DNA from: a phage
Length of the DNA stretch: 64,000 nucleotides
Sequence record: PZ049338.1
Direction: 5' to 3' (one strand)
Translations under genes and position numbers: made by a program
Shown here: positions 2,758-8,761 of the stretch, piece by piece
Layout of the letters: each line of letters starts with the position of its first letter
Numbering within the stretch: position 1 is the stretch's first letter
Notes under the pieces: generated by a model
What the model saw: the letters and a program-made list of their open reading frames with translations, nothing else
Database searches by the model: none
What the model was told of the DNA's origin: nothing

Positions 2758-3378
2758 TTACGCAGCTTTCTTGCTTGCTGCCTTGCTGCGCAGTTCACGC
2801 ATATTTTCAGCGGTGAACAGATCGTTGATGGCTTTAATGGCCATGTTACGCAGTACATCGGTATTCGCGCCGTTCTCAATCGCTTGCTGCAATTGGGATT
2901 GGATAGACGAGCGGATTGATTTGGCGGACTTATCCAAATCATATGACTTAGCATCGCGCTCCTTAGTCTTATTGGTATGCAGCAGGGAAGAGTATTCCGC
3001 AGCTACGAAGGCTTTTACCGCGTTACGATATGCAACCTTCTGCTCCTTAGATACCGGAGCTTCACCTTTCGCCGCGTCATGTTTCCAGTTGGTTACGGTG
3101 TAGGCTTTTTCTTTCTTGTCTGCGGACGTGTTATCTTTATCCATTTTGATAACCAGTTTTGCCATAGTCGGCAGCAGGTCATTGATAACAGCACGTTGCA
3201 ATTGTGGGAAACGTTTAATTGCATTGATGAAAAATTCAATATTGGACGGATTGCAGGAGTCTTTACCCCAATAATCGGTCGCAACTACCTCAAAGGTTTT
3301 AACCAGACCGCGCGAACCTTCACGGAAGTTTTTAACGGATTCGATAATCAGCATTTGGGTAGCGTTCAATTTAGCCAT
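2758..3378 (-). CDS. hypothetical protein (206 aa), first sizeable gene of the leftward unit
   Basis: ORF track; GAGGAA SD 9 nt upstream of ATG at 3378. Confidence 0.6.
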   Translation of the reverse strand: MAKLNATQMLIIESVKNFREGSRGLVKTFEVVATDYWGKDSCNPSNIEFFINAIKRFPQLQRAVINDLLPTMAKLVIKMDKDNTSADKKEKAYTVTNWKHDAAKGEAPVSKEQKVAYRNAVKAFVAAEYSSLLHTNKTKERDAKSYDLDKSAKSIRSSIQSQLQQAIENGANTDVLRNMAIKAINDLFTAENMRELRSKAASKKAA

Positions 3379-3434
3379 GATAATATTCCTCGTTGTTTAC
3401 ATTGATTGAGTTATGAATCAGCACGATTCGATAA

Positions 3435-3466
3435 ATAGCCCACGCATCATGGGAATTATGGGCTAT
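3435..3466. other. inverted repeat (ATAGCCCA ... TGGGCTAT) just upstream of the first leftward gene
   Basis: 8-bp arms read directly; possible operator or RNA structure. Confidence 0.35.
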
Positions 3467-4238
3467 TCGAATCATCACTATTTGCGACTTGTCCAGTCGC
3501 CGGACTGATGCGCGCCTGATGGATACGGGGGCGAGTACCTTTTCACTTTACACATCAAATTTTACTCCCCGACTATCTGCGAATTAAAGATTAATCAGTG
3601 TTAATTGACGCAGTGACACGCCTCAAACGAGATAATCAACCATTGAAATCAATCAAGGCCGATTAAATAAAACTTGTCGTTGTTGTGCTACGTTGTCGCA
3701 TTCTTTATATAATCTTTCGGTAGTCTTAGTTGTGAGTAGGTAGAATTTTCATTCATTCGCTATCACTATTCGATTACGCGGCCTCTCGGCCTATCATCTT
3801 TTCAATCACTAGCCCACTTATTCTATTCAGTGAGATACCAAATTAACACTATACCGACGCTTAGATGTATAGATGATGTTCTAGTCTGGTTAAATCAGTC
3901 TTTACTTTGATGGCAACATGACACGTTGTGTAAACCGCTGGCACTTAAGCCGTCACGCATTGCGTTTTACGCCACCTTTTCAACCTTCCTTGCAAGCCTT
4001 GCGACTTTTAAGGTCGGGGCAAACTACTCCGGCTAAGTATTCAGTGTCTTATGTTTCCCACTGTTACCCGCTTTCGTCAATAAGCCGTAATTTAAAACCA
4101 TCCGTTAATCAGGTATGATTGCCACATTGTCGGGGGGAAGTATCCGACTGATGTTTACCGTTGGTTATACGGCGGGCTATTGCCCCTTAAGGTGCGGCCT
4201 ATGTGGTAGGCTGCCTTTGATGGGTAATGATTAACCTA

Positions 4239-4248
4239 TCCCATCTAT
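4239..4248 (+). promoter_or_regulatory. TCCCATCTAT motif copy 1
   Basis: exact 10-mer, repeated 4 times in the control region. Confidence 0.35.
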
Positions 4249-4269
4249 TTACTACTGGATAACTAATCT

Positions 4270-4292
4270 AGTTAATCCACATATATTAAGAG
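4270..4292 (-). promoter_or_regulatory. 23-bp repeated element, inverted copy (CTCTTAATATATGTGGATTAACT on minus strand)
   Basis: 1 mismatch to copies at 25156-25178 and 47913-47935. Confidence 0.4.
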
Positions 4293-4315
4293 ATAATCCC
4301 TTAATACGTCCTACT

Positions 4316-4351
4316 TAAAACATTCTAGGTTATCCCTTCCTACCTTGTCAA
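4316..4351 (-). promoter_or_regulatory. sigma70-type promoter P1 (leftward): -35 TTGACA 4351-4346, -10 TAGAAT 4327-4322, 18-nt spacer
   Basis: hexamers read directly; AT-rich upstream. Confidence 0.5.
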
Positions 4352-4426
4352 CCTTACTTAGAAAATTCTTTCTTCTGGTTGACTCACCTGATAGTTACTT
4401 GGCTATTCAGCTTCACTATCTGGTAT

Positions 4427-4463
4427 GTGGTAGATTATAGGTTTAACCTTTCTACCTTGTCAA
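4427..4463 (-). promoter_or_regulatory. sigma70-type promoter P2 (leftward): -35 TTGACA 4463-4458, -10 TATAAT 4439-4434, 18-nt spacer
   Basis: consensus hexamers; shares CTACCTTGTCAA context with P1; AT-rich UP-like region. Confidence 0.6.
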
Positions 4464-4683
4464 TAAGATATTTTAATTTATCTTGCTGACCTTTACTACC
4501 TATCAGGCTTTCGCGTTGTTGCTGCGTCGTCCTGATATGATTAACTATACGCAATCTTTTCAGATATGCAAACTAATATTTTAATTATTTTCTAACTTTC
4601 TTTCATCTCACTGATTTATAACGGATTATTTCTTGATATTCTTTCTTGATTCAGTGGATAAGATACGGGATACGGCTTATCTA

Positions 4684-4693
4684 TCCCATCTAT
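4684..4693 (+). promoter_or_regulatory. TCCCATCTAT motif copy 2
   Basis: exact 10-mer. Confidence 0.35.
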
Positions 4694-4894
4694 AGCGTCA
4701 CCTTTCCACCTGGACAAATTGGAACATCAATCACCTTATCTATTCCCTACCTTTCCAGCTCATAGATTCATGCCTGATTGATGATCTTTCTTGTGAGCTG
4801 GAAGCTAAGAGATAACACCGCATGAATTAAAACTAGATAAAGGGCACTAGATAGAAACATGCGGAACGTTATCCCATACGTCTTAATTGCTATT

Positions 4895-4932
4895 ACACGG
4901 AAGAAAGGAAAGGAAGAAAGGAAGAAAGGAAG
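4895..4932 (+). repeat. polypurine tract (GGAAGAAAGGAAAGGAAGAAAGGAAGAAAGGAAGA)
   Basis: read directly. Confidence 0.7.
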
Positions 4933-5040
4933 ATACACCATACGGATTAATGCTTATCAAACTATCGTCGGGTAACGGTGCAATGATTAAGATTGATGCG
5001 ACCAATGGTCGTGTTATGACCTGCGGTCATGCGTACCTAT

Positions 5041-5198
5041 TATCAAAGTCAACAATCAAACGATGATTATCAAAGACGATTATCAAACGATAACTATCAA
5101 AGACGATTATCAAACGATAACCATCAAAGGATAACTATCAAAGGATAACTATCAAAGGATAACTATCAAAGGATAACTATCAAAGGATAACTATCAAA
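5041..5198. repeat. tandem array, about 12 units of 13-14 bp with core TATCAAAG/C (5 perfect GGATAACTATCAAA units at 5129-5198)
   Basis: read directly; iteron-like. Confidence 0.85.
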
Positions 5199-5803
5199 GG
5201 CTGGCATTTTAAACACCGACGTTTTAGCCTCACAAAATAACGGGAAGAAATATAGCTCAGGATACTTACTATTAGTAAGAACATAACCATGCTGGTTATT
5301 ATTACCATGCTATCTATGCGATGGCTTATCATTAGGTAGCTAACTATAACATCGTGCATCATATTCCATTGGTATCATTAGATGACTAATCATGTGCGTG
5401 CATAGTATATCACTTGAGATAATAACGCATGAATACTATATCACTTCCCATTATCAGCGGAGGTATATTAATCCCGTGAACTAATAGCCAACTAATTACT
5501 TATGATATAGTTGCCAATGTTATTAATAGATGAGGTATGGTATCATTTGTATATTAATAATAAGCAAGCTATCTATTCACTGGATGCAATTACAGTATTG
5601 TGCTTCATCCAATAGGCTGTATAATCGTTGTTACATTGTTAACGGTATATGTGCCGACCCACTTCCCCCTTTTTAAAAGTTGTGTGCGCAGCTAGCCCCC
5701 TATACCACCGCGTGAGAGTATGAGAATGAGGATACCCTAACCAATTAATGGGTGAGAGTGATTGCCCGTGGGTATGACCTCCCATCAGACAGTACTCATG
5801 ACC

Positions 5804-5813
5804 TCCCATCTAT
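5804..5813 (+). promoter_or_regulatory. TCCCATCTAT motif copy 3 (GACCTCCCATC also at 5776-5786)
   Basis: exact 10-mer. Confidence 0.35.
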
Positions 5814-5872
5814 CAGTGTCAGTAGAGGCCGAAGGCCTTGGTCTTACCAAAGGTAAGTGACTTCCCATCTAT

Positions 5873-5882
5873 TTTCACTTTC
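5873..5882 (+). promoter_or_regulatory. TCCCATCTAT motif copy 4
   Basis: exact 10-mer. Confidence 0.35.
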
Positions 5883-5896
5883 TTTCAGTGTAAACA

Positions 5897-5920
5897 GTGT
5901 AAATCTGTAAGAAAATTGAA
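5897..5920 (+). promoter_or_regulatory. repeat TTCAGTGTAA-N-TCTGTAA copy 1 (candidate late promoter or packaging-related element)
   Basis: near-identical copy at 6168-6188; TAATCTGTAAG also at 12433-12443 upstream of capsid gene. Confidence 0.3.
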
Positions 5921-6167
5921 AATTTTGAACTAAAGTTCATGTACGAAGGAGATAGAGATTGATAAGAGATTCTTAAACAGTTTCTTATATATCTCCTTCT
6001 TATCCATTCTTATATATCCTCTCTTCTCTCCTCTATAAAAGCCCCTCTTATATTTAAAAATCCATAAACCAATTACGCTGAACAAGAAGAAAGTATAAAG
6101 GAGGTTATGACCTTCCATCTGATTGATAAGATGAGTACCCATCAACTATTTTAATCTTTTCAGTGTA

Positions 6168-6188
6168 AGTCTGTAATGTTTTCCATTT
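6168..6188 (+). promoter_or_regulatory. repeat TTCAGTGTAA-N-TCTGTAA copy 2
   Basis: see copy 1; about 135 bp upstream of first late gene. Confidence 0.3.
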
Positions 6189-6322
6189 ATCAGTGCTATA
6201 TGTAACTGTAGCATCTATAAGGTTTATGTAATTAATAAATAGATAGATGGGTGGATGGTGGGAACTACATTCGCTGGAAGCGAAACTATTGCTTCTGGCA
6301 ATTATTAATTGAAGGAGTGAAC

Positions 6323-6709
6323 ATGTCTGACAATAACGAATTACTTGATTCCATTGTTGAAGGTCGCTCCGTCAAGACTGGACAGTTTGTGAAGGGTAAT
6401 ACTCAAGGTAAGGGCCGTCCGAAAGGTAGCCGAAACAAAATGACTCAACGAATGTTGAATCGTGTTGCTGAACGAAGTGAAGATGGTTTGTCTATGGAAG
6501 AAATCATGATGGATATCGCCCAAGACCCTCAAATGCCAGCAGAGCTTCGCTTTAAAGCAGCAGCTAAAGTTTCTGACCTCGTTTATCCTAAAGCATCTTC
6601 TGTTGAAGTTAAGATGGACGATAAAGAAAGCATGACTAAAGAACAGATTGATGCTCGCCTTAAAGCTTTGCTTAGTGGTGGCCATACAACTGAAGACACT
6701 GAGGACTAA
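6323..6709 (+). CDS. putative DNA-binding protein / terminase small subunit candidate (128 aa) with AT-hook-like GRPKGSR motif
   Basis: start moved to internal ATG 6323 (GAAGGAG SD); sits 2 genes upstream of large terminase; function by position only. Confidence 0.4.
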   Translation: MSDNNELLDSIVEGRSVKTGQFVKGNTQGKGRPKGSRNKMTQRMLNRVAERSEDGLSMEEIMMDIAQDPQMPAELRFKAAAKVSDLVYPKASSVEVKMDDKESMTKEQIDARLKALLSGGHTTEDTED

Positions 6710-6711
6710 AT

Positions 6712-6948
6712 ATGATTGGACTGATATTTGATATTCTTATTCCACGCTTCCGTACTTCTGATTTTTGCCTTGAGGGTAATGATGCTGAAGGTTATGACGC
6801 TGTGTGTGAATATACGTCACGAGATGTAGGAGAACGCTTCGATAAGATAGCAAGTATCAGTTACTTTCAACTCTTCGGGTTTGTTCTGTTTCCTAAAGTA
6901 CATCTAGATTCGATTCGTACGTTTACAAGAGAAGACGTACTGAAATAA
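6712..6948 (+). CDS. hypothetical protein (78 aa)
   Basis: ORF track; SD GAGGA in end of preceding gene. Confidence 0.4.
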   Translation: MIGLIFDILIPRFRTSDFCLEGNDAEGYDAVCEYTSRDVGERFDKIASISYFQLFGFVLFPKVHLDSIRTFTREDVLK

Positions 6949-7276
6949 ATTCCTTGCCAGCCAGCGAGGTTGACTTTCGTCGGGTAAGTCGTGAAAGAAC
7001 CCGACCGCGAATTCAAAGTCTAGCTAGGGTGACAAGAGTATGACAGGCTGTCCTAGATAAGTGTCGGTACTCAACTAGATGTTGTATTGGATGTTAGGTA
7101 AGTCAAGAGAGACAAGCCACGGTCGGGGTCGTCCACGTTAAACATTAAAACCCCGCCCCTCGAATACACGACTGAAGATTTTCCAAATGACTAAAGGTTC
7201 AGAAAATTTTGCAGTTGCCGCTTTGCGGATTAGGGTGAGAGCCCTCGAAAGGTTTATAGTATACACGGAGGTAAGG

Positions 7277-8761
7277 ATGGATTTTAATGAAATCGACTTA
7301 GACTCCCTTCCGGAACATATCAAGTGGGAAATTATTGACTTACTAGAGGAAAGGGAAAGGGTCATTAAATATAATCGGATTAACGAATTCGAACCCTACG
7401 AGTTCCAAAAGAATTTTTATTCTGCAAGTGCTAAATTCAAAAGACGCTTCCTTTGTGCGGCTAACCGAGTTGGTAAGTCTTACTCTGAAGCGGTAGAAGT
7501 GTTTTATCATTTGTCAGGTCTGTACCCTGAATGGTGGGACGGACACAGATTTAAGAAACCAATCCTCTTATGGGCTGTTGGTATCACCGGTGACTCAACT
7601 CGAAAGGTGTTGCAGAAGGAGTTGTTTGGTACACCGATGGGCAAAGACCAAGATGCATTGGGAACAGGCGCTATCCCTCGTGACCTGATTGACATTGAGA
7701 ACATCGAGAAAGACGGTAACATCATCAAAATCGCAAAGGTTAAGCATCATGATAAAAATGGTGACTTTGATGGTTGGTCTACTATCGAATTCCGCTCAAC
7801 TCAACAGGGTGAGCACGTACTGATGGGTGCGACTGTAGATTATATATGGTTAGATGAAGAAGACCCGTTCAAGTCTATGGAAATCTATGCACAGTGCGTT
7901 ACTCGTACTGCTACTACTGGTGGTTTGATTACCATCACCGCTACTCCTGAGAACGGTTTGACGAAACTGGTAGACCTGTTCATGAAAGACACGTCAGGTT
8001 ACTTATATTTTCAGAATGCGACATGGGATGATGCTCCCCACTTAGATGAAGAAACTAAAAAAGAGTTGTTAGCATCTATTCCGACATGGCAGCACGAAAT
8101 GCGAAGCAGGGGGATTCCAATGATGGGCGAAGGTTTGATTTACGATATTGCAGAGTCTTCTATTATTACAGAGCCGATTGAGATTCCATCTCACTGGCGT
8201 AGACTTGCAGCAGTTGATATTGGTATCAGTCACGATACTGCGGTTGTATGGACAGCTTACGATGCTGCTACTGACTGTATCTATGTATATGACTGCTACT
8301 CAGCAGATGCGGGCGTTCCTGCTATGCACGCTACAGCTATTAATGCTCGTGGCAACTGGATTCCTGTTATTCTTCCACACGATGCTGATAACACTGAACG
8401 TGGTTCAGGTCGTAGTGTCGCGTCTTATTATGCAGAGGCTGGTGTCAACGTGATGCCTGAGACGTTCTATAATCCACTGGATTGGACGGGTAAGAAGAAT
8501 AACTTCGTAGAACCGGGCATTATGGAAATCCTTCAAAGGATGAAGACTGGTCGCTTTAAAGTGTTTAGCACTTGTGGCAAGTTCTTCGAAGAAATGCGTC
8601 GTTATCACCGTAAAGATGGCAAGATTGTCAAAGAATTCGATGATACAATGGACGCAGCACGATATTCAGCACTCTCAGTAATTGGACGTGGTGTAAGTGC
8701 AGGTGAAGCAAGTGCTGGCTACAATGCAGCATTCAATGATAACTGGAATTACAATTACTAA
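7277..8761 (+). CDS. terL: terminase large subunit (ATPase/nuclease)
   Basis: start moved to ATG 7277 (GGAGG SD); Walker A-like AANRVGKS; about 495 aa; position upstream of portal. Confidence 0.8.
   Translation: MDFNEIDLDSLPEHIKWEIIDLLEERERVIKYNRINEFEPYEFQKNFYSASAKFKRRFLCAANRVGKSYSEAVEVFYHLSGLYPEWWDGHRFKKPILLWAVGITGDSTRKVLQKELFGTPMGKDQDALGTGAIPRDLIDIENIEKDGNIIKIAKVKHHDKNGDFDGWSTIEFRSTQQGEHVLMGATVDYIWLDEEDPFKSMEIYAQCVTRTATTGGLITITATPENGLTKLVDLFMKDTSGYLYFQNATWDDAPHLDEETKKELLASIPTWQHEMRSRGIPMMGEGLIYDIAESSIITEPIEIPSHWRRLAAVDIGISHDTAVVWTAYDAATDCIYVYDCYSADAGVPAMHATAINARGNWIPVILPHDADNTERGSGRSVASYYAEAGVNVMPETFYNPLDWTGKKNNFVEPGIMEILQRMKTGRFKVFSTCGKFFEEMRRYHRKDGKIVKEFDDTMDAARYSALSVIGRGVSAGEASAGYNAAFNDNWNYNY

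Follow-up and report, generated by a model that had tools for sequence, protein, structure and literature searches.

A variable-number short-repeat array beside a predicted terminal repeat in a 7-11-like podophage genome

The DNA described here (the window) is a 64,000-nucleotide stretch of the phage sequence record PZ049338.1. It derives from a Salmonella/E. coli podophage of the family Grimontviridae and the 7-11/phiEco32-like type, and it is ~93% identical to the Salmonella phages PKM.Hi.22.6 (Hi226) and PKM.Lu.22.1 (Lu221). These two are C3-morphotype Grimontviridae podophages that infect only cells carrying conjugative plasmids (PMC10782986), and their genome layout is also that of phage 7-11 and, at a greater distance, that of phiEco32 (PMC8948821). 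A 2.9-kb region without credible genes (3379–6322) is bounded on the left by the minus-strand (leftward) early genes, which begin at 3378, and on the right by the rightward genes for a small-terminase-like (TerS-like) protein and the large terminase (TerL). The tandem array that concerns us lies inside this region, in which the following features were located.

4322..4351, minus strand: second sigma-70 promoter, TTGACA-18-TAGAAT, 11/12 consensus matches, directed toward the early genes; a direct repeat of the promoter at 4434..4463
4434..4463, minus strand: sigma-70 promoter, TTGACA-18-TATAAT, 12/12 consensus matches, directed toward the early genes
4954..4962, plus strand: solitary upstream copy of the repeat unit, TTATCAAAC, 80 bp left of the array
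5041..5200, no strand assigned: the array in full; its 12 units have the core (T/C/A)ATCAAA(G/C) and recur every 13/14 bp
5041..5122, no strand assigned: degenerate 5' half of the array (units 1–6), with a 27-bp higher-order unit
5123..5200, no strand assigned: perfect 3' half of the array, six (C/T)ATCAAAGGATAAC units, five of them perfect GGATAACTATCAAA
5196..5211, no strand assigned: conserved boundary motif AAAGGCTGGCATTTTA, into which the last array unit runs
5204..5268, no strand assigned: left part of a conserved block, including AAATAACGGG at 5235–5244; predicted left edge of a terminal repeat
5655..5756, no strand assigned: cross-genus non-coding element, CCCCCTTTTT ... AGCTAGCCCCCTATACCACCGCG, resembling the right part of the 193-bp phiEco32 repeat
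6323..6709, plus strand: TerS-like gene, 128 aa, homologue of phiEco32 gp6 and 7-11 gp001
7277..8761, plus strand: large terminase gene, 494 aa, with PF03237 and PF17289 on the gene of identical length in relatives

The two sigma-70 promoters are embedded in a 30-nt direct repeat, and early promoters have been validated at their positional counterparts upstream of 7-11 gene 151 (PMC8948821). Between the leftmost promoter and the first early gene lies a leader of ~900 nt that contains no convincing ORF; GC-rich, stem-like stretches occur in it at ~3900–4200, with no match in Rfam. On the other side, the TerS-like gene lies 1.1 kb from the array, and its product matches phrog_8771 and shows weak similarity to DUF5681 and to the small terminase of PDB 7joq; a homologue of the gene has been named small terminase (PMC9965538). 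Three to seven tRNA genes stand between the TerS-like and large terminase genes in 7-11, SE131, A24, ECO319P1, and BUCT695, whereas the window carries no tRNA gene anywhere; the interval compared was 6710–7276, set against L003, L016, L017, and L018.

Read directly within 5036–5204, the array consists of 12 head-to-tail units with an ATCAAA core, whose starts fall at 5042, 5055, 5069, 5082, 5096, 5109, 5123, 5137, 5151, 5165, 5179, and 5193, giving successive spacings of 13, 14, 13, 14, 13, 14, 14, 14, 14, 14, and 14 bp. Tandem Repeats Finder reports a period-14 array of 10.9 copies at 5051–5200 and an overlapping period-13 array at 5039–5114, the former being by far the strongest repeat of the 64-kb window (score 195). 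There is a single array of this kind in the window. Across the window, GGATAACTATCAAA with up to three mismatches occurs 21 times, against 7.4 ± 2.4 in shuffled sequence (0 of 100 shuffles reach 21); for TATCAAA, 30 occurrences were counted where 12.7 are expected, and the array accounts for 10 of them. The 5' half is organized as a 27-bp higher-order unit (TTATCAAAGACGA followed by TTATCAAACGATAAC) that is repeated ~2.5 times, and the 3' half as a 14-bp unit present six times, with C in place of T at the start of its first copy; the five mismatch-free GGATAACTATCAAA copies occupy 5129–5198, and the copy number of this perfect part depends on the assembly. The unit also holds short inverted arms, GATA-AC-TATC and TATC-AAAG-GATA. 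The coordinates, unit count, period, and gradient from degenerate 5' to perfect 3' units given by an earlier sequence-only reading of this DNA were all borne out by direct reading, Tandem Repeats Finder, and shuffling, and that reading was also right to exclude a CRISPR array. CRISPR arrays have repeats of 24–48 bp with unique spacers of similar length between them; here, the units are 13–14 bp long, contiguous, and without spacers, and a CRISPR array was accordingly rejected.

A polypurine tract, GGAAGAAAGGAAAGGAAGAAAGGAAGAAAGGAAGA, in which GAAAGGAA is repeated ~3 times, lies ~100 bp to the left of the array (4899–4934). An A/G-rich tract is found at the matching position in Hi226, Lu221, 7-11, A24, and phiEco32, so that its position is conserved while its sequence drifts.

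Besides Hi226 and Lu221, further close relatives of the window phage, 85–96% identical in the non-coding region, were recovered from public assemblies through the exact TerS-like protein and its near homologues. Eleven close relatives were compared, and units were counted between the conserved anchors CATACGGATTAAT and GGCATTTT...AAATAACGGG. The counts for nine loci, with the window for comparison, are as follows.

L032: 0 units
L031: 0 units
L033: 1 unit
Hi226: 1 unit and one degenerate unit
Lu221: 1 unit and one degenerate unit
L029: 2 units
L030: 2 units
L028: 3 units
L042: 3 units
Window: 12 units

In Hi226 and Lu221, the flanks align with those of the window base for base, and a lone AAGTCAATTATCAAAGG stands in place of the array. 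The tract of every close relative ends in AAAGG-YKGGCATTTT, that is, AAAGG followed by (C/T)(T/G)GGCATTTT. Copy number thus differs by whole units among close relatives while the flanks are conserved, as is characteristic of variable-number tandem repeats (VNTRs), and all the differences fall at one spot; on these sequence comparisons, the locus is a VNTR. Relatives (L029, L030, L028, and L042) share TTATCAAAGACGA and TTATCAAACGATGA, the unit types that make up the degenerate half, whereas the perfect unit TATCAAAGGATAAC is private to the window phage. The solitary upstream copy TTATCAAAC is kept in Lu221, L030, and L033; Hi226 has an altered version, and in L028, L029, and L031 other sequence stands in its place. 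A wider scan of ~25 related loci yielded a maximum of ~4 units outside the window. Exact searches gave no match for a 28-mer of the array or for a 19-mer of its left flank in IMG/VR, nor for a 22-mer of the array in 185,579 bacterial and archaeal (GTDB) genomes, and similarity in plasmid sequences was limited to one spurious 46-nt match. Provided that L031 and L032 represent viable phages, a recognizable unit is dispensable. The comparison of repeat number among relatives that had been proposed from the sequence thus returned a divided answer: the array itself is not conserved (0–3 units against 12), and its association with a genome terminus, discussed below, is likely.

The array is non-coding. 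Stop codons are present in every frame, and the hypothetical proteins of 46–50 aa annotated across the site in Hi226 and Lu221 (L001 5085–5237, WKV17052.1; L002 5062–5202, WHS68260.1) are very likely not genes, because the small ORF is cut short, to 0–35 aa in other relatives and to 0–38 aa when the window is counted together with six of them; a coding array was rejected on these grounds. Rfam gave no match up to E = 1 over 3000–7000, and no tRNA was detected in the window. A hairpin or cruciform was also rejected, since single-strand DNA folding gave only ~-10 kcal/mol over 169 nt, with mini-stems of 4–5 bp. The tract is thus free of coding or structured-RNA constraint, as expected for a VNTR. 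That the array is an assembly artifact or part of a small protein-coding gene, as the two annotated proteins and the tendency of assemblers to miscount perfect short tandem repeats might suggest, appears extremely improbable: the perfect tract of 70–78 bp is shorter than a typical read, stutter in the assembly would not yield the diverged 5' units, relatives assembled independently carry 1–3 units at the matching site, and the coding variant of this explanation meets the interrupted and unconserved frames just described.

The motif predates the array. The homologous position is occupied by three or four ATCAAT motifs, spaced 11–15 bp apart, in SE131, in pSal-SNUABM-01, and in contigs L011 and L062, with pSal-SNUABM-01 and L062 carrying an 11-bp unit ~4 times; 7-11 instead has two inverted TTGAT motifs and one TTATCAAG there. 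SE131 reads AGATAACTATCAATCAATAGTTAATCAATAGG, which has 12 consecutive bases in common with the window unit, and phiEco32 carries ATTATCAACGTAACTAT, a sequence similar to ATTATCAAACGATAACTAT of the window, at a distance of ~70 nt ahead of its right terminal repeat. Because relatives hold 0–3 units or 3–4 ATCAAT motifs, the array is best seen as a lineage-specific expansion of a small ancestral motif cluster; judging from these alignments, a small ATCAA-type cluster has long been present at the site, with only its copy number unstable.

Directly abutting the right side of the array is a non-coding block that is conserved across genera (5204–5756). In its left part, AAATAACGGG is common to the window, 7-11, SE131, A24, ECO319P1, and BUCT695; in phiEco32, AAATAAACGGG is found 30 nt in from the left terminus. 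Within the region, BLAST gave matches in other genera for a single part, the element at 5655–5756 (CCCCCTTTTT...CCTATACCACCGCG). This element is conserved in 7-11, SE131, pSal-SNUABM-01, A24, ECO319P1, and BUCT695, and throughout the family it probably serves as the recognition core for packaging or for the terminus. In phiEco32, ~20 nt separate CCCCCTTTTTAGG from the right boundary of the terminal repeat. Direct terminal repeats of 193 bp have been mapped in phiEco32 (PMC4281155, PMC9965538), and the terminal repeats of kuraviruses share a conserved core at positions ~130–170 (PMC9965538).

The position of the physical terminus in the window phage can be predicted from such comparisons. One end of the linear BUCT695 record falls 31 nt before AAATAACGGG, the other finishes ...AAAAGGCTG, and window positions 5196–5248 align across the junction of the two (68% over 53 nt, E = 0.001), placing the break opposite 5203/5204; these record ends may or may not be physical ends. 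In a MAFFT alignment, the phiEco32 terminus falls opposite ~5219, although the similarity is weak and, with E-values near 1, non-significant alone. A further caveat is that, for the family member Privateer, PhageTerm returned a 'novel ends type'. With low to moderate confidence, we predict a terminal repeat at ~5204–5692 (right edge near 5692) with the array lying against its inner edge, an adjacency predicted from weak alignments. Among the record and contig ends, the BUCT695 break is the only informative one, and it is suggestive: the first and last 55 nt of the nominally linear ECO319P1 record are identical, an assembler overlap that says nothing about termini, the records of 7-11, SE131, A24, and Hi226 were opened arbitrarily, and the starts of metagenomic contigs are scattered, so that neither of these groups is informative on physical ends.

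Other short repeats are found in the interior of the predicted or mapped terminal repeats of the family. GTATGGA-type units of 15–17 bp occur ~3 times in 7-11-like contigs (L043 188–359, L046 2695–2743), TATTACCCTGCTATA occurs 2.2 times in Hi226 (L001 5263–5295), and ACGGGGA occurs three times in phiEco32 (L005 60–100). It seems to be typical of the terminal region in this family to carry short repeats that are unstable.

A close architectural parallel to the array is provided by phage T7. Its terminal repeat is flanked by short-repeat arrays that were reportedly named SRL and SRR by Dunn and Studier in 1983; to our knowledge, the function of T7-type arrays has never been established, and a literature search on this point returned nothing usable. 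In the T7 sequence, we found 13 units with a TAAAG core (mostly CCTAAAG) and a 13-bp period at 177–334, starting 15 bp after the 160-bp terminal repeat (1–160) and lying ahead of the early promoters (phiOL follows at 405 and A1 at 498), and the leftward E. coli promoter A0 is annotated at 224, inside the array. Both phages thus carry ~12–13 head-to-tail, non-coding units with a period of 13–14 bp and a total length of ~160 bp, in which a conserved purine-rich core of 5–8 bp (CCTAAAG in T7 and TATCAAAG in the window) is followed by a variable spacer. In both, the array stands at the early-gene end, between a terminal repeat (mapped in T7, predicted in the window) and early promoters for the host polymerase; read along the minus strand, the window presents the block (5756–5204), the array (5200–5041), the promoters (4463 and 4351), and the early genes (from 3378) in this order. 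Each array also contains a leftward sigma-70 promoter (T7) or a promoter-like site (window). About a dozen ~13-bp units with a short core and a variable spacer in non-coding DNA, the hallmarks of a T7-type array, are therefore all present. The differences are nevertheless clear: the unit sequences are unrelated, and the window phage belongs to the Grimontviridae and has a phage sigma factor instead of a phage RNA polymerase. The T7 repeat is flanked by a second, weaker array on its opposite side, whereas no second tandem array was detected at 5693–6250 in the window, where only scattered TCCCATCTAT-type motifs occur, and copy number in the window lineage varies from 0 to 12 among close relatives.

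Two further systems are instructive. The VNTRs or minisatellites of bacterial and phage non-coding DNA resemble the array in their whole-unit differences, in having perfect young copies beside diverged old ones, and in being non-coding and dispensable; the array differs from them in where it lies, a conserved and probably functional site bordering the terminal block, and in its origin from a motif cluster conserved across genera. The kuraviruses phiEco32 and SU10 are related phages with a matching genome layout. In phiEco32, ACGGGGA occurs three times with a spacing of 13–15 bp inside the 193-bp repeat, and TTATCAACG is present ~70 nt before the right repeat, while SU10 has CCCTTTTTTA twice in its terminal repeat region; these are 2–4 copies inside the terminal repeat, compared to the 12 of the window, which are predicted to lie just outside it. 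What is found at this locus is a short-repeat array of a known kind at a predicted phage genome end, and it behaves as a VNTR. The sequence-only reading had offered two interpretations, iteron-like binding sites of a replication origin or partition-type protein and a repeat array of the kind that flanks the terminal repeats of T7-like phages. The latter is the better one: it holds for the architecture, in that the array lies between the early promoters and a terminal-repeat-like block, with the terminus itself being a prediction.

The iteron interpretation, under which the array would be an iteron-type replication origin or a partition/incompatibility site bound cooperatively by a phage-encoded initiator, did not survive comparison with known origins. 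Iterons measure 17–22 bp, are phased at about two helical turns, and are few and stable in number, and they lie beside an initiator gene, an AT-rich unwinding element, and DnaA boxes. The array resembles iterons of the lambda ori (O-binding sites), P1, or R6K type in consisting of short direct repeats in a long non-coding region; moreover, the reverse complement of the unit starts with AGTTATCC, the first two thirds of a DnaA box, and the Crifsvirus relative ECO319P1 carries five perfect DnaA boxes in the equivalent non-coding region. It departs from them, however, in unit length, in phasing (13–14 bp against ~22 bp), in a copy number that ranges from 0 to 12 among close relatives, and in its neighborhood. 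No Rep, O, or ParB-like gene is adjacent, nor is one annotated in the closest genome, whose T7-like replication module (polymerase, primase/helicase, ligase, exonuclease, and endonuclease VII) lies >30 kb away. The units match the DnaA box TTATCCACA at only 6 of 9 positions, and boxes with up to one mismatch show no enrichment (24 in the window, 18.6 expected) and are absent from the array, for which reasons a DnaA-box array was rejected. Mimicry of plasmid iterons, considered on account of the plasmid dependence of the relatives, was rejected for want of any real similarity to plasmid sequences. In our assessment, the array is not a replication origin, and a cooperatively bound iteron or partition site of any kind is highly improbable.

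The five perfect DnaA boxes lie within ~200 bp in ECO319P1 (L020, record positions 1–700, reverse complement); the count is for ECO319P1, to which A24 (L018), also a Crifsvirus, is closely related. The equivalent region of the window has just two boxes matching at 8 of 9 positions (4273 and 4653). These observations offer a hint that some members of the family may recruit or titrate host DnaA.

The explanation that we favor, and regard as probable though well short of certain, is that the array is a non-coding, hypervariable VNTR that is tolerated at varying copy number. It would have grown, through replication slippage or unequal recombination, out of 1–3 seed copies of the 13/14-bp unit, with the core TTATCAAAG; these lay at the early-gene end of the genome, where the conserved terminal block (terminal repeat/packaging) has its inner edge. 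The expansion would have taken place in at least two steps: first, the 27-bp double unit was presumably amplified, and later a recent six-copy burst of one 14-bp unit would have occurred beside the conserved boundary AAAGGCTGGCATTTT. A recent burst fits because the 5' unit types are common to relatives and the perfect 3' unit is private, so that the 5' half may be the older and the 3' half, whose six-copy unit is seen in the window phage alone, the younger; the relatives are 85–96% identical mosaics rather than isogenic strains, which makes the timing of the expansion uncertain. On this account, copy number is freely tolerated and the motif is not required. An array-level function is considered unnecessary, because 0–12 copies are tolerated and no second lineage shows a comparable expansion. 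For the single unit, the most plausible role would be weak accessory protein binding or spacing at a genome-end processing site. The persistence of the cluster from Kuravirus to Grimontviridae suggests that at least one copy may be functional, and a purely neutral reading may be too weak.

The same persistence across genera and in phiEco32, together with the abutting terminal block and the TerS-like gene nearby, could instead be read as the mark of a selected accessory element for packaging or end processing, whose units would bind the small terminase or another DNA-binding or DNA-bending protein of phage or host; the inverted arms of the unit could suit a dimeric binder. Lying just before the terminal cut in the direction of packaging, such an array would slow or position the terminase, as cosQ and cosB/IHF do in lambda, and extra copies would confer an advantage in packaging or ejection. 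We regard this as rather unlikely. Relatives that are presumed to grow have 0–3 units, and L032 and L031 have no recognizable one; a second large expansion was not seen among the ~25 loci, which gives no sign of recurrent selection; and the site is so far linked to no protein. Nor do the units fit the IHF consensus WATCAANNNNTTR: an array of IHF sites was rejected, since exact matches are absent from the array and the best unit agrees at 8 of the 9 specified positions, missing the conserved middle T of TTR. A more specific version, in which the TATCAAAG unit, overlapping the predicted AAAGG-CTGG cut boundary, is an amplified cis-acting end-processing site to which the small terminase or an architectural protein of the host binds, must be called doubtful; if it were true, multiplication of the unit would alter the termination of packaging or the first step of DNA ejection.

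Transcription provides another possible role. Adjacent 14-bp units form, on the minus strand, TTGATA-16-TATCCT, a 9/12 match to the sigma-70 consensus that keeps the key T, A, and T of the -10 element and recurs five times in register, pointing toward the early genes, and the annotated T7 A0 promoter has the same direction and setting. By this analogy, the perfect units might be a string of weak leftward promoters or an RNA polymerase sink, which we judge improbable: 9/12 matches are common (19 in the region against 11 expected, 5 of the 19 being this one repeated site), the early genes are already served by two consensus promoters, and relatives with three or fewer units cannot form such sites at all. 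The VNTR at the terminal-block edge, in which none of these array-level roles is needed, remains our preferred reading.

From a practical perspective, the array indicates where the genome probably ends in a group of plasmid-dependent phages whose annotation is poor. These phages are candidates for the removal of resistance plasmids, and their deposited records have been arbitrarily circularized. The array also exposes the hypothetical genes annotated over the site as very likely spurious and offers a hypervariable marker for strain discrimination. If the end-processing role were true, the function of T7-type arrays could be tested directly on the natural series of 0, 1, 2, 3, and 12 units; if there is no such role, the array is an ordinary product of slippage.

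Two further motifs were observed in the surrounding non-coding region. Late promoters read by the phage sigma factor of 7-11 follow the pattern GTAAtg-16-aCTA, which, in its loose form, shows no enrichment across the whole window and which two plus-strand sequences fit, at 6173–6198 and 5907–5932; the former site, GTAATGTTTTCCATTTATCAGTGCTA at 6173, is ~125 nt upstream of the TerS-like gene, where promoter P1 was mapped in 7-11. The TCCCATCTAT family comprises exact copies at 4239–4248, 4684–4693, 5804–5813, and 5863–5872 and variants at 5780, 6112, and 6138, and its TCCCATC portion is far more frequent here than the remainder of the window would predict (5 observed against 0.09 expected). A related CCATCAATCAGTGAC repeat is present just upstream of gene 1 in 7-11 and L011. 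All TCCCATCTAT copies have the same orientation and flank the array and the conserved block on both sides, and they may be candidate protein-binding sites.
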